A stretch of DNA of 63,755 bases, counting the filler, from Conidiobolus incongruus B7586 (lineage: Eukaryota): NCBI GenBank assembly GCA_000697335.1. It is 12 parts of 12 records of this genome, joined end to end, with 100 filler letters (N's around TTAATTAATTAA, not from the genome) between each part and the next. Parts side by side here need not be neighbours in the genome. Positions count along the whole stretch, not along the records: positions 47,782 to 56,849 come from JNEM01004121.1; 11 more parts are not named here. One strand, written 5' to 3'. Below, piece by piece: positions 1 through 60,697 of the stretch. A model generated the notes under the pieces. It was not told where the DNA came from. It did no database searches and saw nothing but the letters and a program-made list of their open reading frames with translations. A program made the position numbers and the translations under genes. Position 1 is the first letter of the stretch. Each line of letters starts with the position of its first letter.

Positions 1-1715
1 TATTAATTTAATATTAATATTATTATATATTATATAATAAATATATTTTAATATATATAATAATAGTTATATTGGATAGTAAAAAAAATTCAAAAAAAGA
101 TATTATAAATTAATTAATTTTATATATTAATTATTTAATTTCAATTTAAAATATTTTTAGATAACAAAAATTTACAAAATATATAAATAGAGTTAATAAT
201 GATAAAAATATTAATTTTGTATAACTCATTTATTTTTAATAATATATATTAAAAACACCTATATATTTTGATTTTAATATTTTAAAAGTATTTATTTTCC
301 TTTTGATTTTTATTTTATATTATTTTTAAAATATATTATTATTGAATTATTTTTGAAATATATATTAAATATAAATTAAGAATATGAAGTGATTATTTTA
401 GAATTCTGAGTATATTATATCAATATCAAAACAATAGATATCTAATACTGAATTACAAATTATTCAATCATTTTGATAAAAATTATTATTATATTAATTA
501 AACTATTAAATTAAAGTAATTATATTGATAAGTATACCCTGGATTTAATTGATTGTTATCTTTCAAAAGTTAAATGCCGATCTCGATTAAAGAGTTAAGG
601 AAGTAGTATTTGACAGGCTATAACATTTACTGAATCAACTATTGAAATAACTTATCAACAACCATCTTATTATAAATCACAACATAATATTAAAAATTAA
701 TCAATTGCGACCAATAACCTAAAAACAACGATCAATACACTAATGATCATTATGAACAAATTCAAATATCGTAATTCATTTATAAAACTACGGTTATTTT
801 ATTAAATTAATATATGGTGAATAAGAATATTACTAGTTCAGACTATTTTATTTCGGATTTAAATACTTCCAATATAAATAACATAATCGAACTGTAAAAA
901 TGTATATTGGTAAATTGACTAAATTTAGGTGAAAACTTAATATTCGGTTAAATGTAAGCCACATATAAATAATAATTTTATTCTAAAGTAATTTAAAAAT
1001 TTTCACATTTTGAATATCAATATAAAAATTTATTTATTTATTTAATTGAAAATAAAAATCTATTATATTTAAATTAATTCGGAATTTTTAAATTATTAGA
1101 ATTTTCCGTAATTTAAATAATTTATATAATAAATTGTATTTAAATTTTTTTTGGTTTTTAATATATTATTTAATCACTTAATTTATCGAAGTTTCATTAA
1201 ATTTTAAAATTCATTTTTAATTAATATTGAGATAATTAATATAAATTATTTGATAGTTAAGGTAATTTTTAATATCGTTAGAGTATTAAAAGGATGCATA
1301 ATCTTGACTGAGATTTTAATATGCATAACGATTATCAGCGATCAATATATTTTATTCAAAGCTTTATATTAGAGAATAATGTTACAATCCTATAGTATCC
1401 TAATATATTATATCATACTTATTGTTTAATATATTCCCCAATAAGTAATTGATGATCGAGGCAAACCTTGTAATAAGATGATTTGTTAATTATTAAACAT
1501 TTCAACAATATCAACTTGATTAGGCATATATTTTGGGATGACTTGGGTGTTAACAGAAAGTTTACGTAATTTAATCCAAGAAATGAAAATAAATTAAACA
1601 GATTGAGAATTTAAATATAATAACATATTTTGAATTTGGTATAAATATATGGCTCTAGACGATATAGTCATATTAAAGTTAATCAATTAATACTATATTT
1701 ACTTGCATTTCAAAC

Positions 1716-2354
1716 ATGTCAAATATCTCATCTCATCTGTATCAAGTTGATCAATTCTCCAAGCCAGTTCAACCATTTAAACCAAGATATGAAACTGGAA
1801 TTGACACTGGAGTATCGGTTACGGTAATCAACAAGGACAAAGTGATTTTGGAGATTAATGGAAGATATTCCGGCTACAAAGTTAAGAAGTCATCCTCCAA
1901 AGATAAGCTTCAAGCTGTGTTCTCAAGTTCAAAAGCATTTTCTTTAGTTGTTATTTTTTATTTAGTAGATCAAGAGCTATTAGATTATGCTTCTCCTATT
2001 CGCAAAAACTGGCAAGAATCAACTCTTGACGATAAGACAAAGATCTCAGTGAAGGATATAACATATGATAAAACTGATGCTCTTATGGTGGAACCCTTCT
2101 TGGAATACGAAAAAATGATCAATCAAGAGAAACTGCACAGAAAATTAGGAGAAGATGTCGATATAATAGATGGGGCCTCAAACTCTTTTTATCACCCTCA
2201 TATTCAAGGTTTGATTTTGAATGGAATTATTACTAAAGTGGATACAAAAAAGAGATCCATTGGTCAATTTTTAGAGGAAGAAATAAGTGATAAGTATGGA
2301 GTTCAATTTTACTATGGTACTGGATTTCCCGATGATTATTTTGTGATTTTGTAA
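1716..2354 (+). pseudogene. Truncated, degenerate beta-lactamase-family (serine hydrolase) paralog
   Basis: The 212-aa ORF aligns by eye with the N-terminal half of 6710..7918 (LYQVDQF, GVSVTVI, AVFSSSK, GLILNGIITKVD, VQFYYG). The LRHQAG motif has decayed to TYDKTD and the C-terminal half is missing. Confidence 0.7.
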
Positions 2355-4939
2355 ACCATAACAAATTCACAATTATTACAAGATTCTATTTAAACTTATA
2401 ATTATTCAATGAATATACATTTAACAATAAAGATAACTTGCATTATTTATTAATTATGTATTTTTCTGAATCAAATTTGTTAAGTTTTTAAATATAAGTC
2501 ATTATTAACACTTTCAATTGAAATGATATTATTCTAATATTTAATTAAAGTTTTTTAATTTTACTATTATGTATTTAATCTTAAAATTTAACTCTTAATA
2601 TCGAAGCTATTATTATTATTTTAAATAGTAACTAATAACCACTATATAAATAATTTCTTAATATTTGAAAATGCCAGTTATATTAATTTACAAGAGGTTG
2701 ATGATTTGTGTAATAAAGAGTAAAAGCAATTTTCTATTACTTCATATATATTTTTAATAATATAATTAAAAAGTGAGTTCAATTTTAAAAAATGTACTCC
2801 AAACACTTTGGAATATTCTTTTTAAATTATATGTAGGATTTGAATTGATATTAATAACTTTGGAATTATAATATCAATTAACTTTATAATGCATTTTCAC
2901 TGATTTATCAATTTACTTCAATACAATAGTAAATATCTCATAGTAAAATCTTTTTCATAATATGCATTGAATTTCCAATCAAATATATTTATAAGTCGAA
3001 TATTTTTGTAAATAAATTTGAAATTAGTAGTAAAGACAATGATTTAGATTGAGTATAAATTAAATACTATTTCAATTATTAAAAATTAATTAAAAAAATA
3101 AATATTTTAATATATTCTCTATTATCAAACTAATACCAGTTCCTATATTATTAATTTATGTAAATATTCCAAATATAACCAAGCAAGAAAAAAATTTTAA
3201 ATATTATTATCTACCCAATTATAACATGTTTGAATTTTGAATTAAATATCAAAAACTTTGGTAAAATATATTTTATTGCTTTAAATTATTGTATAGTTTA
3301 TTTCATTTTTAATAAAGAGTTATATATATATATATCAAAATTCATACATATAACAAATTCATAATAATAATTGGAGATCAATATAAAAATTAATGCTATT
3401 CAACAATTCTATCGGCTTTAAATTAGAAAGATTAGAAATCTCACCTACTCTGGTTCTAATTTAAAATTTATTATTATGAAATATCATCAGATATTATTTA
3501 TAGTAATTATTTTTAGATAATTCAAGAGTTTCATTAACTTGAGCATCAGCGTTAAATTTAATATATGTATACAACATAATATTGCTACAAACTTGCTACT
3601 AAACATTAAATTTTTATTAATTTCAATCAAATAAAATCATGTTTACAATTTGAAAAAGACCTTGTCATATAGGCAATGATGTTTCAATTATAACTTTATA
3701 CAATCTTATTAAAATAATCTTAAATCACAGAAATCAAATGCTTGACACGATATTTATTAAATGATATAATTATGAAAAAAATATAAGAATATAATATTGG
3801 TATTAATTATTAAGAAAATTGCATAATATAATTGTTTAGATCAATATATACATATCCATATGGATTAAAGTATATTATCGGAATTATGGTTTATTTTGTC
3901 CATGATTTAGTTAATTGAAAAAAAAATTTTTTGTGATATATAGGCATGAAATTATCAATGCGCATTGATAGATGCAAATAAATTAAGTAGGACTATTTTG
4001 AATAATCATTAGAAATCGGTAAATATATCCTTAATTGATATGAAATAGCCTTGAAATAGCAACATTCATAATGAAAATACTTAATAAAAGTTATTGATAA
4101 ATTGTATTCAAATGATATAGTCTAACTATTGAAAAATATATTGTTAATTTGACCGAATTTACCTTAAAAGATCAAGATCTATTTATTATAATTAATTATT
4201 GTGAATATTAATTATTCTATAAATTATATAATATTTACTTAAATCACAAAAAAGGAATATAATTAATATTTAACATTGTGATATAATTCGAAATTATCAA
4301 TTGAAATGGATACTAAATACTAGGGACTGTGAAAATCGAAGAATTTACCCTAAATCAACCTAATATTTTTCGAATGAATTAAATTTAGGATCCGATCAAT
4401 TTCCAAATATCACAGTATTTAATAGATTAGATTTTTTAATTTAATCATAAAATTCTAAATTAGTTAATATTAATTAAAATAGTTTAATATTTCTTCAATT
4501 AGGCGAATATCAAAAAATATAATTGTCAATTTTATTAAATCAAATATTTCAATTTATTCCTAATTACTAAATTATTTATTGAAGAGATGAATGCTAAAAA
4601 GATATTAATAACGTGACCAATAAAGTACTTTGAATTTTGATTATTTATAAATTTGGCAATTATAAAATGAGAAAATTTTTTTAATTAGTTAATTTGTTTT
4701 TTAATATTAAAATATAGACAAGTAACAATTTTTAATAGAACTATTAAATTCCAATGATAAGATTATTATTAGCAAAAATTTATTAAATTTAACATCTCAT
4801 AAAATATACCAAAAAATTGCTCTAGTATTTGATATGAAAATAAATATTTAATATATAAAAACAAATACTCAACTTAATATAGATAGATCTGTTGAGTCAA
4901 TATAGCTATTATTAAATTATTCAAGCTCTACTAAGTTTA

Positions 4940-6155
4940 GGAAATTGATCAGCTTGATATAACTGATATGGGATATCTGACATATTCAAAATCTGATTAA
5001 AGTAGTTGAAAAGTTTAAATCGCATTTCGAAACTGACATTGATGTTGGCGCCTCCGTTACTGTGATCCACAAAGACAAGATAATTTTGGAAATTAGTGGG
5101 GGGTATGCCGACTACGAGACAAAGACAGCTTACACCAAAGATACTGTAAAAGTTGTGTTCTCCAGCTCCAAAGCTATTACTTTGGTCGTCATCGCTTACT
5201 TGGTAGGTCAAGGATTGTTGGATTATGATGCGCCAGTCAGCAAATACTGGCCCGAATTCGCCCAAGCTAGTAAGGAGAATGTATAAATCAAGGATGTTAT
5301 GCGTCACCAAGCTGGTGTCCCTTGGGTAGAACTCCCCTTGGAATACGACGAATTGATCAATCCTGAAAAATTGTACAAGAGACTTGCTGAACAGCCTCAC
5401 GCCTTTGGTGGAGAACCCAGGCGTTGCTACCATGCCGCTATACAAGGTTTTATTTTGAATGGTATTGTAACTAGAGTCGATCCCAAGAAAAGAACCATTG
5501 GCCAAATTTTGAAGGAAGAGTTCACTGACAAGTTGGGTGTTGAATTCTACTATGGTATTAGGGATGATGAAGCATTGAAGAGAAAGGCTTTTTGGTACCA
5601 AGGTCCCAAATCTGTCTGACAGCCTAATAACAGTACCGATCTATCATATGATTCACCTTCCTTCTACGCTGAATTGCATAAAGCATTTCCATCAATTGCT
5701 GAATCTATGAACTTGCCATTATTTCGTGGTTCGAGTGAAGCACCTGCAAACCATCCCAATATTCATATTGTTGAAATGCCATAAGGAAATGGTCACACCA
5801 CTGCCACTGCATTATCTAAAATCATGTCCCAAGTAATCAGTAGCTAATCTGTCATCTCTGAAAAGACAAGAAAATTAATGCTCTAAGATTCCTTAACGCT
5901 CAATGATGAAGCAGTAAATATCACCTCCACACTCACAAAGTGTGGTCTCGTTAAATTTGACTATCCCGAAGTCAACTTAGAAGTATATGGAGGTACTGGA
6001 GTGGAGCTGGAGGCAGTTTAGTGATTATCCATCCCGAATCCGAATTCACTTTCGCTTATCTCACCAACGCCAACTATTTTGTTCCAATTGGATATGGCAG
6101 AGGCTTTGATTTATTGAAAGTTTTTTATAATGAGTTTAAACAATTGAACAAATAA
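4940..6155 (+). pseudogene. Beta-lactamase-family pseudogene (full length, disabled)
   Basis: Collinear with 6710..7918 (FSSSK, MRHQAG, CYH, GNGHTTA, LEVYGG, GRG). In-frame stops at 5284, 5617, 5782, 5845 and 5884, a frameshift near 6000, and the first 15 codons inverted (4940-4997). Confidence 0.9.
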
Positions 6156-6709
6156 TTTTTATTTATTTATTTTATTGAGTATTACCAATATTATTTTTAT
6201 TTATAATAGATATATATATATATATTTAAAGTATATCTTTAACATATTAATATTATAATTAAATATCTAAATTATTTAAATATTTGAATTAAATTGAAAT
6301 AATTGTATATATGGAACAAGTTTAGACATTTCTTATTTTAATTTTATAAATTACAAATATTTTTTGAATTTCAAATGCTTATTTTAACCATTTTCTCGGT
6401 CAAACTTTTATATAAATAATGTCCATAGTTACCTGATCATTCAAAGCAAATTAAATTTCAATTTTGATTACAAATTTTGTTGAATCATTATAGATATCTA
6501 TATTTAGATTAAATAATAAATATATGCAATTAATATTATAAAATGATTTTTAACCCCAATTTTCATTGGTTTGAATATTATTCAATATGAATTTTTACAT
6601 TTTTACAGAATCAATTTGCGGTCTTTAAGTGGTTTTTATTGAGATATTAATAAAAATATTATTATCATTTAAATTAGTCACAAATATTCATTAAAATAAT
6701 ATTAGAAAA

Positions 6710-7918
6710 CTATTTCTTTTGCCCTTCGGATTTGTATAATTGACTAAAATCTTCATAAAATGATTTCAATAAATGATATCCTCTGCCATCACCTGATAAC
6801 GTCTTCTCTCTTCCATTCATAACATAAGCAAATGCAAACTGAGATTTGGGATCGAAAACAACAAGGCTGCCACCGTATCCAGCTCCCCCATACACTTCCA
6901 AGTTCAATTCAGGATAGACAAATTTAATTAAGCCACCTTGAGTGAGAATGGTATTAAACTCAGTTACTTCATCCCTCAACTCCAATGCATCATCCAGCAT
7001 CAACTTCCTAGTCGATGCAGAAATTGGTGACTCATCACTCATCATAAGTGACAATAGTTTAGCTAATGATGTTGCCGTAGTGTGTCCATTCGCGGAAGGC
7101 AACTCGATATTGTGAAAATCAGGAGAATTGGCAGCTGCAACGCTTGAATCAAAGAACAATGGCAAAATCATAGTTTTAAAAATGAGTGGTATTTCTGTTA
7201 AATATCCTGTCATTATATTTGCTGCTTCATTTATTGGAGATTGAGTGTCATTGGATTTCCAAACTAATGAAGGATTGTCATACCAAATCGCTCTTTTTTT
7301 TAGCACTTCTTGGTCTCTAATTCCATAATAAAATTCAATATCATATTTATCGCAGAATTCTTCTTTCAAAATTTGTCCAATAGAACGTCCCTTGGAATCT
7401 ACTCGAGATACGATTTCATTCAATATAAATCCACGTGTGACTGCGTGGTAGCATCTTACAGGCTTACCATCAAATACATGGCGCTGAAGCTCAATTGCTT
7501 TGCACAATTTCTGTCGATCGATTATTTCTTCGTGAGATAAAGCGGGTTCAAACCAAGGAACACCAGCTTGATGACGTAACACATCCTTGAGGGTGACCTT
7601 GTCTTTTCCGTTTTGGCCAAATTCAGGCCAGTATTTGGTAACGAGTGCATTATAGTCAAGCAATCCTTGGTCTACCAAATAACCAATAACTAATGTAGTA
7701 ACAGCCTTGGAACTTGAAAAAATTGCTTGTAGTGTATCCTTTTTGTATGGTATCTTATTCTCAAAATCTGAGTAACCTCCACTGATCTCCAAGATAATTT
7801 TACCTTTATGTATTACAGTTACAGAAGCTCCTACGTCGATTCTAGTCTCAAAATGAGATTTAAAAGTTTCGACTACTTTAGGGAAATTATCAGCTTGATA
7901 TAATTGAAGAGGAATCAT
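6710..7918 (-). CDS. Beta-lactamase-family serine hydrolase (class C/esterase-like), 402 aa, intronless
   Basis: SxxK motif (FSSSK), LLDY..V.KYWPEF, LRHQAG, YH, LPSANG and G-x-G-x-GG motifs typical of the beta-lactamase/transpeptidase-like family. Confidence 0.92.
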   Translation of the reverse strand: MIPLQLYQADNFPKVVETFKSHFETRIDVGASVTVIHKGKIILEISGGYSDFENKIPYKKDTLQAIFSSSKAVTTLVIGYLVDQGLLDYNALVTKYWPEFGQNGKDKVTLKDVLRHQAGVPWFEPALSHEEIIDRQKLCKAIELQRHVFDGKPVRCYHAVTRGFILNEIVSRVDSKGRSIGQILKEEFCDKYDIEFYYGIRDQEVLKKRAIWYDNPSLVWKSNDTQSPINEAANIMTGYLTEIPLIFKTMILPLFFDSSVAAANSPDFHNIELPSANGHTTATSLAKLLSLMMSDESPISASTRKLMLDDALELRDEVTEFNTILTQGGLIKFVYPELNLEVYGGAGYGGSLVVFDPKSQFAFAYVMNGREKTLSGDGRGYHLLKSFYEDFSQLYKSEGQKK

Positions 7919-8983
7919 TGAAAGTTTCAGTAATGTTTAATTTGATTAATAGAATTTGTGATTTTTAAGATTTGTTAAATAACCAAGGTTTTGCAAAAAA
8001 AATATTCAATTTATATGTTGAGATGAATCAATAAAGTATTAGACCACCCAAAATGCATTAATTGGGAAATATTACTCCTATATTTTTAGGTTAATTAATA
8101 AAATCAAAATTGCAATTATATAAAATTTATGTATTCAGCATCCAAGTTAGCCATTCAGATAAAATTTAAACTATTAATATTTATGCGAAAATTAAAATCC
8201 ATACAAATTATTACAAATAATTCAGATTAAAATATATAATTAAATCATGGAATTTAGATTATTTAATATTCGCCTATTAATATTTATCATTAATTATAAA
8301 AAGAAATATTTCCAATAGTTATTTTCTTAAATTTGACATTAATAGCTATTAAATCATATATTCTCAGATTAATAATATATTATAATATTATTAATTAAAA
8401 TATTTATATCAGTACAATAATTAATTAAAATTTATATTTTAAAACTGAAATTAAATATAAATATAAATATTAATAAATATAATATAATAATATATTAATT
8501 TTATAAATTAAATATTTTTCAATATAAATAACTTTTGCTAGATTTTTGGCAAGCTTTGGATTTTTAAAAAATAATATTTTAATAAATATTAAAATTTGAA
8601 ATTTTATAAACTAATCCATTTTTTTATAAGAATTTTTATATTATGAATATAATTTTTAATTATATAAAATAGTTATTTATATAAATATATTATAATTTGG
8701 TGAATATATTTAATAAAATAATTTATTTATTATATATATATATATATTTATAATTATAATCTTTGATAATATTTAAGTTTATAAATTTTATAATTATATT
8801 TAAATATTTAAAATTTCTGATTTAAAATTATAATATTAATTTATAGAAATTGATTATAAATAGTATAAAACTAAATATTATTAGTTTATAAAGAAAAAAT
8901 CATAAATTTTTTAATATCTCTTTTTTCAAAAATATTTCTAGTTTTGAAAAATAAAATTTTAATAATATATAAAAAAATAAACA

Positions 8984-12961: not shown

Positions 12962-15046
12962 TTAGCATCCCTTTTTGGGACAAGCAAAACTGGTAGAATA
13001 ATCTGATTGAACCATACCGCAAATTTCAAAGACGGCTTGAACGACACCACCAATACCTTCACCAGCAATCATACCGGAGGCAAGAGGGATGTTGTAGTAC
13101 TTATGAGATTCGGGGTTGCGCTTGGCCCAGATTTGTTCAATAATAAGACCATAGAGGGAAGCCAACAACAAATAAGGAGAAGGATTGACCAAGGCAATAC
13201 CAAAAGCATTCCAGTTGGGGACCCAGTGGGCATATTTCTTCAAAAGCGTGCGCTTAAGAACAGTGGAAACAATAGTAATGATACCAAATACCAAACAGGC
13301 AATTCTAGAAGAAGGAGGGACAGAGGCGGAGATATCTTTAGTCAAAGCTTCAGCAACACCCTGCCAGGCAGCAACTGATGGAGCTTGGAAAGGACAGTTT
13401 TCATCTTCATCAGACATTATGAGGAAACAAGGGTAAGCCTTACCGAAGACCCAAAAGATAACAACAGCAACAACGACACCAAAGATGGAACCAACGATTT
13501 GGGCGTAGAACTGGGATCTTGGAGAAGCTCTCAATAAGTGACCAGTCTTTAAATCACCAACCATATCGACAGTTTGAGCGGCACAAGAAGCAGCAACGTT
13601 GCCAGCAATAAGGTTGACCTGTAAGTCCATGTTAACACTTCCATGTTTAAATGGAGCAAAGATGAATTGAGAAGTCTTGCCAATGACACCAGTAGGGTTG
13701 ATATCGGTTTCACCGGAAGATTGTGTAGCAACGAAAGATAAAATAAAACCAAGGATGACAGCAAATAATCCCAAGTACCATTCAATAGAAAAGTAGACTT
13801 TCAAAATGATAATCGTACAGATGGTACTAACAGCAATACCACTACCCCATTGCCAGCCGGGAATTTGTTCGGTTTGAGGGACGGGATCATAATCACTGCC
13901 ATCACTATTACCAATTTGCTTAGGAGTACCACCAACTAACTTAGCGACAATATTATAAAGAGACAAGAAAGCTCCCTTGAATCCGTTGTAAACAGTCTTG
14001 TATTGACAGGCCAGTTCAGTAAAACTAGCACAGATCATGATAACAACACCAGGCCACAATAACCACAGTTGAGGGGTAATAGTTCCATCAGTACCGACTG
14101 CGAATTGCCAAGGAGATTTGTGATTAACGATGCCTTCGGTGTAATAGAAGAGACAGGGAGCAACGATACCCCAAGCGAAGATATTACCAGCCGTAAGAGA
14201 TAAGACGGCGTTAGTTCCCATCATCATACCAGCACCGATGAAAGCAGTGGTAAGCTGAATGTGCCATCTCCACATAGAAGAGATATCCATTAAAGCTTTG
14301 GAGCCAGCAGCTTGGCCAATCCAGTATAAGGGATGCAAATCAAGGATGAAAGGTACGAAATAGGATAAAATCTTGTAGAAGGTAGATCCGAGGAAAGACC
14401 ACAAGATGACCTTTCCTTGAGCTTTTCCCTTATTGGATTCTTCAGAATTACCACCAGGAGCTCCATGTAAAGTTCTGACGGTGACAGCAGCAGCGACAGG
14501 GGAAGGGAATACGAGCTTTTGTTGGATGACGAAGTATTTCCTGAGAGGAATGGCAAAGAATAAGCCATAGAAAGCAGCAGCAGTAGTCCATAAGAACATC
14601 ATATCCCAAATACCATCAATATCTTTTAAGATTCCCAAACGGAAAAGAGCGGGAATGGCAGTAAGATAACCAGCTGAAAGACCACCAGCAGCTGTAGCAG
14701 CAGTTTGGACAGTACAATTTTCTTTGATACCGAACGCACCACCACCCCAAGAAGGAGGAAGTTTTTCCATTGGCTTCAAAATAGTGAAACCGAGAATGGC
14801 ACCGAAGATGGAAGCACCAAAGGTCCAACCAGATTTCAAACCTATATACATGTTACTAGCAGCAACAATACATCCAAGTAGAGAACCAATGATAGTAGCT
14901 CTCCATGTGAATTGATATGGAATACCATCATCGGGTTCTCTGTCATCAAGAGGATCAATTTCGGCAGCCCTAACGGCGTATTTTGAATCTTGTTCTTTGT
15001 TATTATATTCGAATTTTTCGTTAACGGGTAAGTCAGCTTGACTCAT
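12962..15046 (-). CDS. OPT-superfamily oligopeptide/metal-chelate transporter (YSL-like branch), ~694 aa, intronless
   Basis: FTWRA..IG, NMYIGLKSGW, ENCTVQTAA, FPSPVAAA, GETDINP, GDLKTGHLL.ASPR.QF and ASGMIAGEG motifs; many TM helices. First ATG (MSQADL) is at 15046; the ORF track starts at an upstream GTG. Confidence 0.93.
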   Translation of the reverse strand: MSQADLPVNEKFEYNNKEQDSKYAVRAAEIDPLDDREPDDGIPYQFTWRATIIGSLLGCIVAASNMYIGLKSGWTFGASIFGAILGFTILKPMEKLPPSWGGGAFGIKENCTVQTAATAAGGLSAGYLTAIPALFRLGILKDIDGIWDMMFLWTTAAAFYGLFFAIPLRKYFVIQQKLVFPSPVAAAVTVRTLHGAPGGNSEESNKGKAQGKVILWSFLGSTFYKILSYFVPFILDLHPLYWIGQAAGSKALMDISSMWRWHIQLTTAFIGAGMMMGTNAVLSLTAGNIFAWGIVAPCLFYYTEGIVNHKSPWQFAVGTDGTITPQLWLLWPGVVIMICASFTELACQYKTVYNGFKGAFLSLYNIVAKLVGGTPKQIGNSDGSDYDPVPQTEQIPGWQWGSGIAVSTICTIIILKVYFSIEWYLGLFAVILGFILSFVATQSSGETDINPTGVIGKTSQFIFAPFKHGSVNMDLQVNLIAGNVAASCAAQTVDMVGDLKTGHLLRASPRSQFYAQIVGSIFGVVVAVVIFWVFGKAYPCFLIMSDEDENCPFQAPSVAAWQGVAEALTKDISASVPPSSRIACLVFGIITIVSTVLKRTLLKKYAHWVPNWNAFGIALVNPSPYLLLASLYGLIIEQIWAKRNPESHKYYNIPLASGMIAGEGIGGVVQAVFEICGMVQSDYSTSFACPKKGC

Positions 15047-21459: not shown

Positions 21460-23457
21460 TATATGATTCATAGTGCTGACTCTCTTTAAATTATTCCTTT
21501 GTTTTTGCTACTTGCACTATAGCCTTTAGTCTTTTTGACACTCAAATAAGGTAACTTTTCAACATTGCCAACCTGTTGTAATAGTGTGGAGTCTAACAAA
21601 AAATTTGTAGGAACATTCAAATCACTTTACATCATAACTCTCAATTTTGGAATCATTTGGGAATCCAATGGTGTAGGTAAGTTATAAGTTTTCGTTGTAA
21701 TATCATTAGATTTCACAATACCAAAACCGATGCACTCGCAAAGATCTGGAGGTGGATATGGGGCGTTGGTGGGTGTCACATACTTGGGGATTTCGTTAGA
21801 ATCACGGTCTGAGGTAGTGGTGGATATGAAAGAATCTGGGAATTTAAAGGTGTAGAGAGCTACTAAACTGAGGTTGAAAGCGTACAAAACTTGACTGAGG
21901 TCTAAAGCATCGTCTTGAAGTTGCCATAGCTCGAGTTGTTAGAATGGAATAAAGTGGATTGGCCAACTGAAGATTGGCGTAGAATCCCATTTGTTAAGGG
22001 TGGGGCGTTTGAGAGAGTAACTATATAGAATAAGGTCGCAATGATCGACAGGTTGAAACTTTTTGAATGTGTAACGATTAGTTTGAGGAAAATCAATAAG
22101 CTCCTGAAGCGTTGAGGATAGGAATAAACAACAACTATTTAGATTGGTATTCAAGGTGTCCAAATGTAAAGACAAATCACTCTTATCACCTTCCGGAATG
22201 GGATTCAAACTGTATTCCAACTGCTAAATTGAATCAATGGAGAGTTGGAATGACAATTGACTCGACTGATTGGTATCGAATGGAATTGAACTAGATGCGT
22301 AGGTTACAATAATTCCGTGAGTTGATCAACGTATCCATACCCATACGCCGGACCCAACCATGTGTGTTCACGATCAACAGAATTCTGTGACTATTGCCAC
22401 TCTGTTTCAATTCGTTCAGTGTCAAAAACTACTGGATCAAAGTCTGACACCCCTTGGTGAAGTATTCAGGATTCAATTTGACGTTGTGGTCCTCCAAGTA
22501 AAATCCCGCCAAAGGTTGTCTCAATTGGCTAAAGTCAGGCCCCAATAATGGTGTATCAATGAAATGTAAAGTAATATAACCACTAGGAACCAATTGAGTC
22601 TGACCAGGATCCGTATTTAGATAAGCAACTTTACTCCCACTACACAATAATTTATTTACCATATATCTAGCCAATGTACTTTTACCAAATCCCTTTGCCC
22701 CAACAATTTGAATAATTTGTAGTCTATCAATTTGAAAATCTTCAAAATATCATTAACATAAATTCATAATTAGATTAATCAAATTTACCATATAATTTTA
22801 AATTTTTATCAAATTCTTCAGCAGTAAATTGCCATTATCCAGGTAATTCAAAAAATAAAAAATTGGAATTGGAGTTATCAAATATAGAGATTTTATACAA
22901 GTACAAAACAGTTTTTGACCTAGATGGCTTTAAAAGTTTGATTAAATTTTTTATCGATTAATTATAATTTTTTTATTAAAATTATAATTTGAAACTTTTT
23001 TAAATTCTTCACTGTTCTTACAATTTAAAAAGTTCTCTAATCTCAACCTTAATTACTAACATTTCACTACAATATTCCTCTCTCTGCACTCTAAAACTTT
23101 AACAAATTTCAATGTTATCAAACTACTAGTCTTAGAACTCGATACTTCAAACATTGGCAACCTTTCAAACTTCTCGTGGGACTCTTAAGTACCGTTTATT
23201 TGATAACCGAGACAGTTTAATCCACCAAAGAGGACTGAGAGTTAGCTGTGGCCTAAAATTATAAAGTACTATAATGGAGTTAGTAATTGAGTTAATTAAA
23301 ATTATATGATTATTACTTCAAGAGGTTCAAGACCTACTAAGGCTATTGTGTTGCTGTTATTTTAGAGGATGTTAGAATTCTGTCGTTCGGAATTTGATAT
23401 TGTTGGAGTGAAATTATTTAGGGGAGCTATTTGTGTTGCACTGGTGTCTATATTCAT
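21460..23457 (-). pseudogene. GRC3: Polynucleotide 5'-hydroxyl kinase GRC3/NOL9 (Clp1 family) pseudogene
   Basis: Walker A IVGAKGFGKST (~22677-22710), YLNTDPGQ, IVNTHGWV, and C-terminal AFNLSLV and ECIGFGIV motifs. ATG at 23457; short introns ~23269-23316 and ~22740-22788; several in-frame stops (e.g. 22429) and frameshifts. Confidence 0.85.
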
Positions 23458-27862: not shown

Positions 27863-28255
27863 ATGAAATTTAATACTCAATTAGCTTCTATTGCCATTGT
27901 TTTGACAGCTGTTCAATCTCAAGATATTGGCAATATTTTCCAAACTGCAAAATCTGCTATTGAGGGTGTCGTTCCAGGCGCTCAAAGTCTGTTAACAGCT
28001 GTTGGAGATGTCATCAATCCTCAGCACTCTTCTACAGCTACAGTTATTTCTCCAACACCTACTTCTCTTTCCATGATTGCCACATCCACATCCGCATCAA
28101 TCGTGTCTTCCACCCAAGGTGTCAAATCTAGCACTACAGGAGCTTCAGTTTCAACTACAACTCCAAATAGCGCAAATAGTATCACTGCTCCCAGCAATTT
28201 TGTTTTCGTCGTTGCAGGAGCCGCCTTTGCAGCAGTAGGTAGTTATTTAATATAA
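27863..28255 (+). CDS. Small secreted Ser/Thr-rich, probably GPI-anchored cell-surface protein
   Basis: N-terminal signal peptide (MKFNTQLASIAIVLTAVQS), S/T-rich stalk, NSANS omega-like site and hydrophobic C-terminus. TATA-like tataaat near 27781. Confidence 0.85.
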   Translation: MKFNTQLASIAIVLTAVQSQDIGNIFQTAKSAIEGVVPGAQSLLTAVGDVINPQHSSTATVISPTPTSLSMIATSTSASIVSSTQGVKSSTTGASVSTTTPNSANSITAPSNFVFVVAGAAFAAVGSYLI

Positions 28256-30801: not shown

Positions 30802-31746
30802 TTAATTTGAAAAAAGATATTGAAAAAATTTCTTCCATTTTGTTTTGAATTTCAAAAATGTCATACTAAAAGCATCTTTGATTTCAGGTTGAAATAAAAT
30901 AGTAACAATTGGATTCACTGATGCTGTAACATTTGCAAGGATATATACTACTGCTTCAACGAAAGGTGGTCTCTTATATCCATTTACAGCTTTCAATATC
31001 CATGTAGTATACGATAACATAAAACTTACATTGTAAATAAAGAATACCAATATTAGTTGGAGAACTAGTTTGATTTTCTCTTTACAAATAATATTTAACA
31101 TATTTTCGTCATCATTGATTTGTGCTTCTCGTTTCATTTCGTTTAATTGTTGATTGGCTTTCCATCCAACTGCAAAATAGCAAAAGGTAGTGATCCAGCA
31201 TAGAATGAATAGCATAAATGGGACAATATATGTTACAATAGTAGAAATGGTATTTGGTTTCAAAAATGGTATGCAAAATAAATAAGATGGACCTGGACTA
31301 GCGTCTTGGTTGATTGCACCATAAGTATAGATTATAATAGCAGGTGATGTTGCAATAAATAAAATTAGGAGCCAAAATTTCAATTTTTTCTCGATCTGAT
31401 GACAAAAAATCAAATATCTGAGTAAAGATAACATTGCTACAGAATTAATTTCAACTCTGATTATTAATTGATGTATAAAAGCATAAGCATAACATGGGGT
31501 TGTTCCGGCACTGAACCAGGTGTAGCCTAAACCTAATTTTGCTATTGAAACTATTAATAACTCGACACCATTAAAGAATTCAATAAAACAGAAAATTAAA
31601 ATTAGACGGATTTCAGTTGAGCTTAAAATAGAGTTTTTCCATATTATATATATTATTAGTATATTAGATATTAAAGTAAACAGAGCTTGTACTAACGATA
31701 TTGAATTGAAAGTGTAATTAATAAAATCTAAATTATTGATATCCAT
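30802..31746 (-). CDS. Seven-transmembrane GPCR-like receptor (class A-like), intronless
   Basis: Seven hydrophobic segments; TM1 Asn (SNILII), Cys before TM3 and in ECL2, LLRY at the DRY position, NPIVT in TM7 followed by a helix-8-like segment. Confidence 0.85.
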   Translation of the reverse strand: MDINNLDFINYTFNSISLVQALFTLISNILIIYIIWKNSILSSTEIRLILIFCFIEFFNGVELLIVSIAKLGLGYTWFSAGTTPCYAYAFIHQLIIRVEINSVAMLSLLRYLIFCHQIEKKLKFWLLILFIATSPAIIIYTYGAINQDASPGPSYLFCIPFLKPNTISTIVTYIVPFMLFILCWITTFCYFAVGWKANQQLNEMKREAQINDDENMLNIICKEKIKLVLQLILVFFIYNVSFMLSYTTWILKAVNGYKRPPFVEAVVYILANVTASVNPIVTILFQPEIKDAFSMTFLKFKTKWKKFFQYLFSN

Positions 31747-49307: not shown

Positions 49308-50844
49308 ATGATTCCAAGAGGAGTAAAAATTCTTCCTGATCCAGAGGTACTGCCAACTAACTTTTCGTTTTCTCCTCAATGTCAACTACCAATAAACAGT
49401 CATCTATTATTGTTTAGTATCTTGGCAAAATTCTCGTTGTTAGCGTTTCATATTATTTTATCATCAATTAGTTTATATATTGGAAGCTTCCTTTATTATT
49501 TATCTATAATATTTCCTAAGTTCGAGAATTGGAAATATTTTATGCAGCATGGATTGGGAGTAATGATAATTAGCATCTTACATATATTCAATCCTACATC
49601 TCTAGTTATCTCTAGAGGTGAAGGAGTCGAGAAGACTGAATTATTTGACTATTTCAAAAATCCCCCAGACTATTACCCCAAATTGAACATGGAAAAAAGA
49701 GCCATTGTGATAGGGAATCATCAAGTAAGAAAATAAGTTGATATTTATTGAATGTTATTAATTTGATATATCAATTAAAATTAGCTATACAATGATTGGA
49801 TGATATTTTGGTAATGATTTATATTTATTTTAATATCTGTATCTAATTGAGTAATTAGGGCAATTGCATACTTCAACCAATTGAATGAATACATAACAAT
49901 TAGTCTCAAAAAATCTTTGTCAAATATTCCATTATTTGGCTAGTAAGTGACATTAAAGTTTATAATTAATCCAAATTATTAACTCTAATATTAATAATTA
50001 TAATTAATATTATATTGATTATATAGTGTAAGTGAATTATACTTTCAGTATTTAAAAATTTTTAATAATTATAATAGGCATTCGAATATATGAAATGGGT
50101 TTTATTTGAAAGAAATTGGAAAAATGATCAAGATCATTTGAATGAAAGACTCACTCATTTGAATAGCTTAAAAGATCGTCCATGTTGGTTTATAATTTAT
50201 CCAGAGGGAACTACTTTATCAGAAGAGACAAGACTTAAATCTAAAGCCTATGCTGAAAAAATAGGCAAGGTATACTATTAACTATCAATTTTAGGAATTA
50301 ATTGCTGATATTCAAGATCTTTTAGCGTCCATTTCATCATTTGCTATTACCTAAATATATGGGTCTATATTTTAGCATTAACAAGCTTAAGGAAACTGTG
50401 GACTATGTTTACGACTTGACTATTGGTATACCTAATGTTCCTGTTTACACTTCACCTCAATGTACATTTACATTGAGTTCAATGTATATATCGGGTATTG
50501 CACCTCGTCAAGTGTTCATTCATCTTCGCAAGTTCAAAATCAGTGAAATACCTATTGGATCAGAAGAGGCATTTTCAAATTGGCTATATGATCGTTGGGA
50601 GGAAAAGGATGAATTATTGGACTATTTTTATCAACATAAACACTTTCCTCTAACCAATAATGATATCGATAATTGGACAAGTGATGGTGTTAATAGTGAG
50701 AATATTGAATTCCCAACTGTTTTGAGTTGTAGAGTTGATTTATTCGAACTTATCGTATTATGGTCGTGGAACATATTCTGCATGTATGGTATATATTATT
50801 TGATTTCAATATTATTCACACAATTTGAAAATTATTGGAATTAA
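49308..50844 (+). CDS. Lysophospholipid acyltransferase (LCLAT1/Cst26-like), paralog 1
   Basis: Inferred exons 49308-49724, 49785-49810, 49859-49942, 50027 (1 nt), 50078-50269, 50326-50844. Motifs NHQ-LYNDW (HxxxxD), LKKSL..IP..G, FERNW..D, YPEGT, LLLPK, YDLTIG and WLY.RW.EKD. Confidence 0.9.
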
Positions 50845-54789: not shown

Positions 54790-56276
54790 ATGGTTAAAGG
54801 AGAGCCTGAGATATTGCCAGATCCACGACCTTTGCCGGATCAATTGAGTTTTGATACTCAAAACATACTGAATTTTAGAGATTATTGGACCCTGATCAAA
54901 TTATTCGCGGGATCCGTATTACTGTATACACATATTGTGGCAAATACTATCCTGTTTTACTGGCTGACGTACTTGGACGCTTTGAAGCCCATCATTCCTC
55001 AAATTGAGCAGTTGCCGAGATTCTTGCTGGGTGCTTATGGTGTGCTGGTAGTCGCTTGCTACCAACTGTTCAATCCAACCAATTTGATACTGACGAGGGG
55101 TGATGGCGTCTCTCCCGAAGAGTTTCAGGATAATGACAAGTTGGGTAGAAGGTTACAATTTTGTGATAGATCTATTTTGGTTAGCAATCATCAGGTAATT
55201 ATTATTAACTTTTTATTAGTAATCTTTACGATTAATATATATGTTAGTTGTATACAGATTGGGGTCTCATTGGGTATTATTCATCAACATTACTTTACTA
55301 TAATATAAATCTTATTATAATTTAGGTGTTTAGCTTACTTCAATCAAAATTATCACAGTTATAAAATAGTATTAAAAAAATCTATTGAATCAATTCCAGT
55401 AATTGGAAGGTAAACCTTTTATAATTTAAAATTGATATCATATTAATTGAGATTTGAATTAATTAGGGTATATATTTAAATTAATTTTTAGGTAGAATTG
55501 ATCAATTTATTATTATATTTTTTAGACTATCAGATACTTTGGTCATATTTATATCAAAAGAAATTGGGAACAAGACAAATCAGTTCTGATTGACCAATTA
55601 AAAAAGATTAATAAGAAACCTAATGATGATTTGTGGTTTGTGATTTTCCCCGAAGGTACGACTTTAGAAGAGGATACTCGTATTAAATCGAGACAGTTCG
55701 CTGAGAGGATTAATAAGGTAATTTATTAAAATTTGATTACAAAGTGATATTAATGGTTATAATTATATATAGAAAGAGTTTCATCATGTATTATTGCCAA
55801 GATCTTTAGGACTTTACCACGTCTTAAGCAATACCAAACCTACAGTGGAATATTTATATGATTTGACAATTGGGTTGGAGAACCTGCCCAAGTATTCATC
55901 CCCATGCTATGTACACACTGTTAATTCGATGTTTGTTTCTGGCACAGGTCCCAAAAACATCCACATCCACGTACGCAAATTCAAAATTTCAGACATTCCA
56001 ATGAATAGCGAATCTGAATTCGGCAATTGGCTTTACTCTCGATGGGCAGAGAAAGACGAATTGCTGGAACACTTCTATAATTATGGTCAATTCCCCACAT
56101 CAAATACTGTTGAAAATATCTCAGGAGAAAGCGAACCTATAAAGGAATTCCCAAAGATCTTGAGTTGTAGTGTGAACCATATTTCTGAAATTGTCTACCT
56201 TTGGGGCTCTACATTCATATTTCATTTTGTAGCTGTCAAACTCTTATTTTGGTTGATATCATTTTTCCTCTTTTAA
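54790..56276 (+). CDS. Lysophospholipid acyltransferase (LCLAT1/Cst26-like), paralog 3
   Basis: Inferred exons 54790-55194, 55248-55273, 55326-55409, 55467 (1 nt), 55526-55717, 55773-56276. Internal exon sizes (26, 84, 1, 192 nt) equal those of paralog 1. Motifs NHQ-LYTDW, IKRNW..D, FPEGT, LLPR and YDLTIG. Confidence 0.9.
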
Positions 56277-59200
56277 CTATTCTTATCATTATAAAACTAT
56301 ATCATATATTAATTCAATATATTAGCTAGAATTTCAAAATCTATTATGTATAATTCATAATTTCTCTTTATAATATAAATATAATTGAATAATAATTTTT
56401 CAAGTATATTATTATACGATATATTAATTTTAATTAATATAAAATTAAATTAGCAAAAAAAATAGTCAAAAATAATTTTTAAAGATTTTAAATTGATATT
56501 TATTATAATCCTTATTATAATAGATTTAAAATACCTAAACTTATTTTTATTTAAATATTTATTTCAATTTTTTATATCAATATATTTTTGGTTATTAATT
56601 AAATTATTAAGTTTATTTTTTAGTTTAAGATTAGGTAAAAAAATGATAAAATATTGATTATTATTTTATAATCAATATATTATTATATATCTTATTATAG
56701 TTATAATATAATTGCTTATTTTATATATTTATTAATCTGATAATAATTTTGGAAACAATTAATAGAAATTTTTTAATATAAAAATACCCAATAGATAATT
56801 TTAAATGATAAAATATTTATTTTTAAATAATATATAATTTTATTTATATNNNNNNNNNNNNNNNNNNNNNNNNNNNNNNNNNNNNNNNNNNNNTTAATTA
56901 ATTAANNNNNNNNNNNNNNNNNNNNNNNNNNNNNNNNNNNNNNNNNNNNAAAAATATAATATAATATTTATTATAGATAATTGTCCTTTAAAATTAATTT
57001 ATATTTTTATAATTGAAAAATTAAATATTTTGTATTAAAATTTATTGATAGTCTAGTTTAATTAATATATATTATATTTATGTAAATATATTTATTAATA
57101 TCAACCTAATTATATATAATTTTTGTTAAAAGGTATTAAGATTCTATTATCTTAAATAGGTATAACATTATTTTAATATAATTAAATTAACTAGATTGTT
57201 AATTAACGGTGAGTTATAAATTTTATATAATAAAAATCAAAATATTCTTAATGATTTTCATTAACTATTTAAAAGATATTTAATAGCATTTGGTCTTTTT
57301 TTGCATTTTATTATAATACATATTGATTATGAAGTTTTAAAAAACATTCAAACTATTTTTTCATTTATATCATATAATAGTATTATGTTAATTTAAAGGC
57401 TTTGCTAATAATCTGTTAATTTATAACAAACACAATATCAATAGTATTAAATTATCTGGAATTGGAATTAGAATATTCTGAATGTTTGACTATAATAAGT
57501 ATATATTTTATATCAATCTTCTCAACTGATAAAAAAATAATTTATATAATTGAATGATATATATATATATATATATTATATTCATGAAATATGGTGTTAT
57601 AATCATATGAACTATGGTATATGATTTAATATACAATATTGTTATCTGATGTAATCAACATCCCTTATTTTTATCAATATTTTTTGGATTTTCAAACAGG
57701 TGCTCAAGTATTCAATCTTGGATATTAGAAAAAACGATAGTAGTAAAAGTATAAGCTACATTAATACAAAAACGACGAATTGAGTTAAACTTAGTACAAA
57801 ATTAAAATTATTCAAAATACAAAAAAATTCTAAATTTTTATATTATCAATCAAGTATATTTGAAAATTGCTTGAGAACTGAGGAATAAGGGGTTAGGTAA
57901 GTTAAGGACCTTATCCCACTCTTCATTCAACAATTACGTCATTATTAATCTACTAATTTTACTCAAATATCAACTTCCTAATCAGATAATATAAATATAT
58001 AAATATATAATATTTGATGTGATTAGGAGAAAAATGTATATTTCAATTGCGATAAGAAAATAGTGTAATTCAGATATCATTCTTATTGTTAATTTTATTT
58101 TTTTTCCTTAAAAAATTATGATATATTTCTAATAAAGAATCATAATATAAAATAGTATAAATTATTTAATGATAACCAGTACATATAAGTTTGTGATTAT
58201 TATTATTGTAATTTATTTATTTGGAAATGATATGTGAAAGCTTGGCCTTTTAACAGGATAATAACCAAATATATTCAAGAAAACAGGCCTTAGTTCGTGG
58301 AGATTGATAAATATACCTCGAAATACAACTGAATAAATTTTTAACAATAATTTATTCTAATCATCTATTATTCAATTAAAATATTTGAACTGTTAAAATA
58401 TAGACTATTTTGGATAGTACAATTTATACAAAAAAATATGCTAATGTAAAATTATTGTGGATTGTTTATTTTTATATTTTCCAGATTTGATCTATTTTTT
58501 TTTCACTTTTTATTTAAATAACAATGGATTTATAATAAAAAAAGTGAATAAAATTCAATTTTTTAGAATAAATTTTTTTTATTTAGAATATTCAATTAAA
58601 TATAAAATATTTAAAATTTGAATTAGTAGATATATAATAATAATAATAATAATAATAATTTATAATACAAAAAAGAAACTCGGCAAAACTTACTATTACA
58701 ACTTTTACCAATAAAAACAATAATAAAATTAATCCATTTAAAACTTTTGATGGGACTTAAGATATCATTTTACAGATTCAATCCATTTTCCTATAAAATC
58801 AATTGTTCTTCTAATTGGAAATTATCTGATGGAAATTTTCATATATAAATAAATATATATGGAGGACTTTGTATCATTTGTAAAAATTTTCAAAATATCT
58901 TTTAAATATTAGAATTTTAATAAGTATTTAGTATAATTAACAATATTTTAATAAAAGTATAATATTTTTTTAATTTTTTTATATACATTAGTGAAAATTA
59001 AAAAATATTCTAGTTTAATAATAAATAGAGATGAGAAAATTAGTTAAAATTAATACTTAATGAGGATGAAATAAAATTTTTCTCATTATTAAATTCTCTC
59101 AAATGATTTCAATATTTGTTAAATGCTTTATATTCATAAATTCACCTTAAAAAGTCAATGTTTTTGGCCTAATTGGGGTATATAGAAATTATTTAATCAA

Positions 59201-59938: not shown

Positions 59939-60697
59939 ATGTATGACAGCCTCAGTGGCCTACATATTGAGTTAAATAATCTAAAAGTCAGTATTGATAA
60001 ACTTGAGAACGAAGTCGATGAACTGTGCAACAGAATAAGGATACTGGAAGCTAAAGAGGATCATCAAACAATTACAGAGAGAGAAACGATTAAATTAGAT
60101 GATCTAAGAATAGATCGATCCTACTTAAGAAAGAGGATCTTTCAATTGAGAGAGGAAAAACTTTTAATACTCAAATTTATTTCTAGACAAGAGGAAAAAT
60201 CCTCAAAGCTCACCTCACCTATAACACAGCCACTTTATCCTCATCATAGAAGTGACAGCCAGGATCACGCTCCCATGACTTTCATCCCTTCAGCAGCCCC
60301 CAATTCACCTCCCTTCACCAACTCACACTGGGATACAAACGAGAGTCTAGCACTAATTGCAGAATATGACAAGCTTTTTCATGGGTTTAAAGGATGCACA
60401 CGGAATAAAGATCTTTGGGCAGAAATCTCAAATAATTTAGTAAATAAGGGAATTAGACGAGATTGGAAACAATGTAAAAATCGATGGAGATTCTTAACAG
60501 ATAAATACAGAGAAGACTCTAGACACCCTCACTCGATTCAAACTAAAGACAAGCACGTTTGTGAGTTTTTCGACCAGCTTCATGCAATGTACTCTAAATA
60601 TAACTCCTTTCCTTCCGCTAGGAGAATCAATAACCAGGCGAAGCCAGGGTCGGGGGTGAATCTGGGGATGAAACGGCCAAGTTCTTCCATGTCTTGA
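59939..60697 (+). CDS. Coiled-coil + Myb/SANT-like (trihelix) DNA-binding protein
   Basis: C-terminal W..NESLALI....LW.EIS..L...G..R.WKQCKNRW..L..KY...CEFFDQL is the Myb/SANT-like signature; N-terminal heptad coiled coil. The frame is open from 59812 and the first ATG is 59939, so the true start is uncertain. Confidence 0.8.
   Translation: MYDSLSGLHIELNNLKVSIDKLENEVDELCNRIRILEAKEDHQTITERETIKLDDLRIDRSYLRKRIFQLREEKLLILKFISRQEEKSSKLTSPITQPLYPHHRSDSQDHAPMTFIPSAAPNSPPFTNSHWDTNESLALIAEYDKLFHGFKGCTRNKDLWAEISNNLVNKGIRRDWKQCKNRWRFLTDKYREDSRHPHSIQTKDKHVCEFFDQLHAMYSKYNSFPSARRINNQAKPGSGVNLGMKRPSSSMS

Follow-up and report, generated by a model that had tools for sequence, protein, structure and literature searches.

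Can a single nucleotide serve as a coding exon? The question is raised by the third of three acyltransferase genes in Conidiobolus incongruus B7586, where one G (G55467) lies between two short introns. The sequence of the locus makes it likely that G55467 is a real one-base coding exon, the base completing, as its third letter, an Arg codon of a lipid acyltransferase of the Cst26/LCLAT1 type. All positions refer to the window, the whole stretch of 63,755 nucleotides (filler included) that was analyzed.

An acyltransferase gene in three tandem copies

Eukaryotic and very rich in AT (GC content of 11 to 33% per 2 kb), the window holds between 49.3 and 56.3 kb an acyltransferase gene in three tandem copies, here called paralogs 1, 2, and 3. 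The features used below are as follows.

49308..50844, + strand: paralog 1, intact gene of 412 aa with six exons like paralog 3
49308-49724, 49785-49810, 49859-49942, 50027, 50078-50269, and 50326-50844, + strand: modelled exons of paralog 1
50027..50027, + strand: candidate 1-nt exon (T) of paralog 1, third base of a Tyr codon; its omission gives an immediate TAG
49943-50026 (84 nt) and 50028-50077 (50 nt), + strand: introns around T50027
52100..53500 (limits approximate), + strand: paralog 2, decayed, with in-frame stops and eroded splice sites
54790..55194, + strand: exon 1 of paralog 3, 405 nt, terminating in N-H-Q of acyltransferase motif I
55248..55273, + strand: exon 2 of paralog 3, 26 nt, containing the D of HXXXXD; equal in size in paralog 1
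55326..55409, + strand: exon 3 of paralog 3, 84 nt, its last two bases (AG) starting the split codon
55410..55466, + strand: intron 3 of paralog 3, 57 nt, GT-AG, phase 2
55467..55467, + strand: candidate 1-nt exon (G) of paralog 3, third base of an Arg codon at the Trp position of the family G-W-G
55468..55525, + strand: intron 4 of paralog 3, 58 nt, GT-AG, phase 0, containing a nonproductive AG/GT at 55490-55493
55526..55717, + strand: exon 5 of paralog 3, 192 nt, with the motif II Arg and motif III FPEGT; PF01553
55773..56276, + strand: exon 6 of paralog 3 to the stop, PF16076 (Acyltransf_C)

The exons in the window match PF01553 and PF16076. The latter scored above cut-off in the last exons of paralogs 1 and 3, and exon 5 alone gave 23.7 bits against PF01553 in paralog 3 and 15.1 in paralog 1 (cut-off, 23). 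Both modelled proteins carry the HXXXXD, motif II Arg, PEGT, and C-terminal Acyltransf_C that mark the GPAT/AGPAT group. The Cst26/LCLAT1 label of paralogs 1 and 3 is a putative one that follows a preliminary description of this DNA. Like yeast Cst26p/Psi1p and mammalian LCLAT1/AGPAT8, the two proteins combine PF01553 with PF16076 and motifs I to III, as defined in PMC4280512; this likeness is one of architecture and motifs, and the tree described below contained no named yeast or human protein.

A quick tree with SH-aLRT support, built from 48 core sequences, joined paralogs 1 and 3 as sisters (SH-aLRT, 98) and grouped them with homologs from Entomophthorales (91), so that the host gene is likely that of an entomophthoralean fungus. 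The best profile matches of the two last exons were proteins of Entomophthora muscae and Neoconidiobolus thromboides, and homolog searches with the window exons returned two, zero, and one proteins, all distant. Between paralogs 1 and 3, pS is 0.79, which is saturated, and pN is 0.41, giving a pN/pS of about 0.5. Paralog 2 retains the phase-2 donor after G-AA, and no AG-N-GT was recognizable in it; its decay is too far advanced for it to count as a third copy of the exon, and it was discarded as such.

Two peculiarities of the paralog 3 protein were also seen. A Gly (55248-55273/55326) takes the place of a Trp that is present in 60 of 60 aligned homologs (W166 of P0003), and its helix upstream of motif II reads R-T-I-R-Y against W-G-M-Q-F in the family. 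As judged from sequence, these changes may reflect altered specificity or relaxed selection.

A single base between two complete introns

The junctions proposed in the preliminary description proved correct: exon 3 ends at 55409 and is followed by a GTAAAC donor at 55410, the middle reads TAG-G-GTATAT with the G at 55467, and a further TAG ends at 55525, with the exon resuming at 55526. G55467 is thus preceded by AG and followed by GT, with a complete, usable GT-AG intron on each side, and the coordinates bear out the sizes of 57 and 58 nt given earlier. Also as claimed, the flanking exons match in size between paralogs 1 and 3 (exon 3, 84 nt; exon 5, 192 nt), as does exon 2 (26 nt), and the same layout recurs in paralog 1 at the identical codon with another base, T50027. 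Both introns fit the array, in which 9 of the 10 introns of paralogs 1 and 3 measure 48 to 60 nt (the remaining one, 84 nt) and all 10 modelled acceptors end in TAG. Branch-like words (YTRAY) lie 21 and 32 nt before the 3' end of intron 3 of paralog 3, but such words are frequent in AT-rich DNA and therefore discriminate poorly and carry little weight.

Each of the two composite intervals contains exactly one AG-N-GT. In 100,000 shuffles, an AG.GT that leaves two usable introns arose by chance in 6.5% of cases for paralog 3 and 3.8% for paralog 1, and the stricter YAG.GTA in 1.3% and 0.9%, respectively; in AT-rich background segments of 32-48 kb the rates were 2.8% and 4.5% for AG.GT and 0.5% and 0.75% for YAG.GTA. 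Either site by itself is weak evidence; both together would be expected at about 1e-3 (loose pattern) to 1e-4 (strict pattern), taken as the product of two separate rates. A microexon of any other size is ruled out by the single AG.GT per composite intron together with the fixed protein length.

It had been argued that the site was retained independently in two diverged paralogs. Retention at the same codon is confirmed, whereas independence is not: because paralogs 1 and 3 are sister genes, the putative exon is a single shared inheritance kept through synonymous saturation, and two origins are not implied.

A fixed protein length before motif II

Further support for the exon comes from the length of the encoded protein. 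Among 152 homologs, 84 could be scored for motifs, and in 84 of 84 the Gly of P-x-x-G and the Arg of R-x-W lie 13 residues apart; the 68 unscorable proteins (28 without PEG, 37 without the upstream motif, and 3 without R-x-W) include models of different length. Of the 80 metagenome loci examined, which were the best among 301, 79 also have a spacing of 13, and the remaining one is interrupted by an intron farther on. The value recurs in 16 of 17 bacterial loci (the exception has 14), and in the solved PlsC structure of T. maritima (5KYM). The only product of paralog 3 that gives a spacing of 13 is the one containing the microexon, in agreement with the G-to-R spacing reported at the outset.

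Skipping the base shifts the frame, and including it restores both the conserved spacing and a gap-free alignment. The alignment check suggested earlier was carried out with an HMM of 89 homologs and favored the microexon product, which scored 272.9 bits against 264.8 for the product of acceptor 55533 and 257.6 for that of donor 55399, that is, 8 and 15 bits more than the alternatives shorter by 3 and 4 aa.

In the Entomophthora homolog, as modelled by AlphaFold (mean pLDDT, 89), the corresponding Trp falls in a seven-residue helix (192-198; pLDDT, about 97) that directly precedes the strand and Arg of motif II, a motif tied to acceptor binding (PMC4280512). The fixed length would be explained by the place of the split codon within this short helix ahead of motif II, and the routes that lose 3 or 4 aa would be predicted to delete about half of that helix. 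The bacterial homologs (L081-L097; Thermoanaerobaculia, Deltaproteobacteria, Bdellovibrionales, and Oligoflexus) share the G-W-G helix and the spacing.

Alternative splice routes

The two in-frame alternatives named in the preliminary description, acceptor 55533 (loss of 3 aa) and donor 55399 (loss of 4 aa), do exist. Altogether, six in-frame single-intron routes are available to paralog 3 (losses of 3, 4, 12, 14, 34, and 37 aa) and four to paralog 1 (20, 20, 32, and 32 aa), and such routes need introns of 116 to 127 nt. When the exon is skipped, paralog 3 loses its reading frame and paralog 1 meets a TAG at once; intron retention leads to stops. Since the smallest single-intron loss in paralog 1 is 20 aa and skipping there runs into TAG, paralog 1 cannot do without the exon; paralog 3 most likely retains it by descent.

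The alternative that survives best, though an improbable one, is that paralog 3 mainly uses one long intron (55410-55533 or 55399-55525) and that its AG-G-GT is now a relic or is used to a minor extent. Both long introns are in frame with canonical sites: acceptor 55533 is a CAG, and donor 55399 reads GTAATT, the same hexamer as the donors of introns 1 and 5 of paralog 3. The drift of this copy at conserved positions (Gly for the invariant Trp; R-T-I-R-Y) might also mean that constraint has relaxed. Against this, about half of a seven-residue helix of constant length in bacteria and fungi alike would be lost, the introns would have to be 124 to 127 nt long in an array where 9 of 10 are 48 to 60 nt, and the internal sites have outlived synonymous saturation in paralog 3 while becoming unrecognizable in the decayed paralog 2.

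It is very unlikely that paralog 3 has recently become a pseudogene or is hardly expressed, its inherited site no longer mattering. A decayed sibling lies next to it, other genes in the window have in-frame stops, and an invariant Trp has been lost; yet its 403-aa product has an open frame, all ten splice sites, HXXXXD, the motif II Arg, and FPEGT are intact, and pN/pS is about 0.5 although pS is saturated.

The weakest alternative, to which we give hardly any credence, is that no one-base exon is involved and an identical mRNA results from slippage of the outer splice sites by one base, recursive splicing at 55490-55493, editing, or frameshifting: paralog 3 needs a G, both outer intron ends are G, and intron 4 has an AG/GT, but a slip requires a TA donor or TA acceptor, the recursive route yields the frameshifted skip product, and paralog 1 lacks AGGT and needs a T that slipping cannot provide. 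The AG/GT at 55490-55493 is present, as had been pointed out, but the support for recursive splicing then attached to it did not hold up, since every route through it gives a stop or the frameshifted skip product; the site is missing from paralog 1, its like arose in 5% of shuffles, and it is not the conserved, productive AG/GT that recursive splicing calls for. In a fully spliced paralog 3 read carrying the G, inclusion would be visible with the source base ambiguous, because both neighboring intron ends are also G (slipping via noncanonical TA ends), whereas the T of paralog 1 would be unambiguous.

Proposed splicing and ancestry of the exon

We propose that each of the two introns flanking G55467, at 57 and 58 nt, would be recognized by intron definition and that the two would be removed successively, because two spliceosomes cannot flank one base (the model of the APC11 and plant microexon papers). 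Skipping would lead to a frameshift with a stop about 20 codons on. The identity of the base would be irrelevant to splicing, and the exon would have arisen probably when two introns came to sit one base apart; a regulatory device is disfavored.

The exon would be older than the duplication that produced paralogs 1 and 3. The split codon encodes Trp in 57 of 84 homologs, Arg in paralog 3, and Tyr in paralog 1, and the base would have changed along with its codon, from TG/G (Trp) in the family to AG/G in paralog 3 and TA/T in paralog 1. A differing base is unsurprising, because it occupies a third codon position and APC11 tolerated A>T and A>G. If the ancestor was TG/G, the paralog 1 line would have had to change the exon base before the exon 3 base, as the reverse order would have created a stop codon.

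A possible split codon in other early-branching fungi

Comparison of 161 proteins, 94 of which reach from NH to PEG, suggested that the same codon troubles gene models elsewhere. All seven indels of at least 2 residues between NHQ and R-x-W begin or end at the W/G boundary (within one residue), and four further models pass directly from NHQ to G-M. There were no indels in the 24 columns after NHQ or in the FPEGT block; the LLPR-YD block had eight, seven of them at one position. The broken models comprise 11 proteins in 8 clusters and are named Mortierella (three), Linnemannia, Diversispora, Gigaspora, Bifiguratus, Sporodiniella, Mycoemilia, Smittium angustum, and Furculomyces, so that public models break at the split codon in Mortierellaceae, Glomeromycotina, Mucoromycotina, and Kickxellomycotina. 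Intact models occur in the same phyla (E. muscae, Neoconidiobolus, Dimargaris, Phascolomyces, and Smittium megazygosporum).

Some of the broken models would need a phase-0 acceptor before G-M and others a phase-2 donor in the codon of the Trp position, and Mortierella sp. GBA39 and the Smittium/Furculomyces pair appear to rejoin inside an Arg codon. In one model (P0054), the frame is shifted throughout exon 3 (58.4 bits; 0 of 1000 shuffles; one of eight registers tried) and is left exactly two bases into the split codon. A phase-2 donor combined with a phase-0 acceptor is the signature of a one-base exon, and since models from Mortierellaceae point to both, the same exon is indirectly suggested there.

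An intron in the split codon was found in 0 of 80 metagenome loci (the best 80 of 301, a set biased toward intron-poor genes), and these loci contained no third genomic copy of the exon. A first metagenome scan for homologs gave no match, and scanning prokaryotes and viruses added 17 bacterial loci plus 1 divergent locus. One metagenome locus (L064:2639-2730) shares introns 1 and 2 and the layout of the 26-nt exon 2, and its G-W-G is without an intron.

The breaks tip our judgment slightly toward an ancient exon, present in the Trp codon (TG/G) of the common ancestor of Zoopagomycota and Mucoromycota, persisting in Mortierellaceae, arbuscular mycorrhizal fungi, Mucoromycotina, Kickxellomycotina, and Entomophthorales, and lost in intron-poor lineages, with the gene misannotated across early-branching fungi. 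If so, this would be among the oldest one-base exons in fungi, and its natural swaps (G and T) would show how a split codon can evolve while avoiding a stop. If the model breaks share this cause, a lipid-remodelling enzyme would be misannotated in oil-producing Mortierella and in mycorrhizal fungi.

Relation to known one-base exons

The closest published case is that of the Fusarium CYP621A P450 genes, which have a 1-nt exon (Nelson and Syed 2026, PMC12940212). Both are fungal nuclear genes with AG-G-GT inside an apparent double-length intron, a phase mismatch of the flanks, constant motif spacing, and intron-free homologs that serve as length markers (PMC12940212). The CYP621A base stands second in a Gly codon, reads G in every copy, and is supported by reads (PMC12940212), whereas that of paralogs 1 and 3 is a third base, differs between the paralogs, belongs to an entomophthoralean-type fungus, and is predicted from sequence.

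In Arabidopsis, APC11 has a constitutive 1-nt exon that is still spliced after A>T and A>G changes, and sequential removal of its introns via intron definition has been proposed (Guo and Liu 2015, PMC4674806). As in C. incongruus, a base essential for the frame sits between two spliceosomal introns; APC11 differs in being a plant gene with an upstream intron of 333 nt, tested by mutagenesis, for which no in-frame bypass is described (PMC4674806). The 1-nt microexons of plant APC11 and VPS55 are conserved, and read data back intron-by-intron removal of plant microexons (Yu et al. 2022, PMC8831610). They likewise are missed by annotation, long conserved, and lost in some lineages or paralogs; these are gene families other than the acyltransferase (PMC8831610), and the term acyltransferase is absent from the main text and the six supplements of PMC8831610 that were searched.

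Among fungi, a long-read-based annotation of Coprinopsis cinerea lists 13 one-nucleotide exons in 13 genes (PMC12230235). One-base exons thus appear rare yet recurrent in fungi, although C. cinerea is a basidiomycete (PMC12230235); PF16076, IPR032098, and CST26 had no match in the five supplements of PMC12230235 searched. A literature search lying outside most subscription journals found no published one-base exon in the acyltransferase family or the entomophthoralean lineage and no published intron-length figure for Conidiobolus.

The exon of paralogs 1 and 3 would therefore add a gene family and a fungal lineage to a short published list, and it leaves knowledge of the splicing mechanism unchanged. 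The tandem pair may serve as a natural experiment, with one site, two bases, and an in-frame bypass in paralog 3 and none in paralog 1.

Other features of the window

Ambiguous letters occur at 11 places in the window (for example, 56850-56949), as pairs of 44-N runs around 12 called bases (968 N in total); no N run lies within paralogs 1, 2, or 3. Five of five intron-free ORFs tested had no match in the protein collection, and no protein derived from transcripts of this fungus turned up there. Intron-free genes include an OPT transporter (12965-15046, - strand) and a Myb/SANT-like protein (59939-60694, + strand). A hydrophobic 314-aa ORF of receptor-like appearance (30805-31746, - strand) and a Ser/Thr-rich 130-aa ORF (27863-28252, + strand) are also intron-free and had no Pfam match. 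Three similar ORFs of the beta-lactamase family lie at 1683-7936, where PF00144 was tested for 6713-7918 only, and the copy at 4981-5619 contains an in-frame stop. The coding region of a CLP1_P protein (Clp1/Grc3-like kinase) at 21489-22749 (- strand) is interrupted in frame by TAG at 22429-22431 and TAA at 21939-21941 and 21627-21629, which may reflect a pseudogene, unrecognized introns, or an assembly error.
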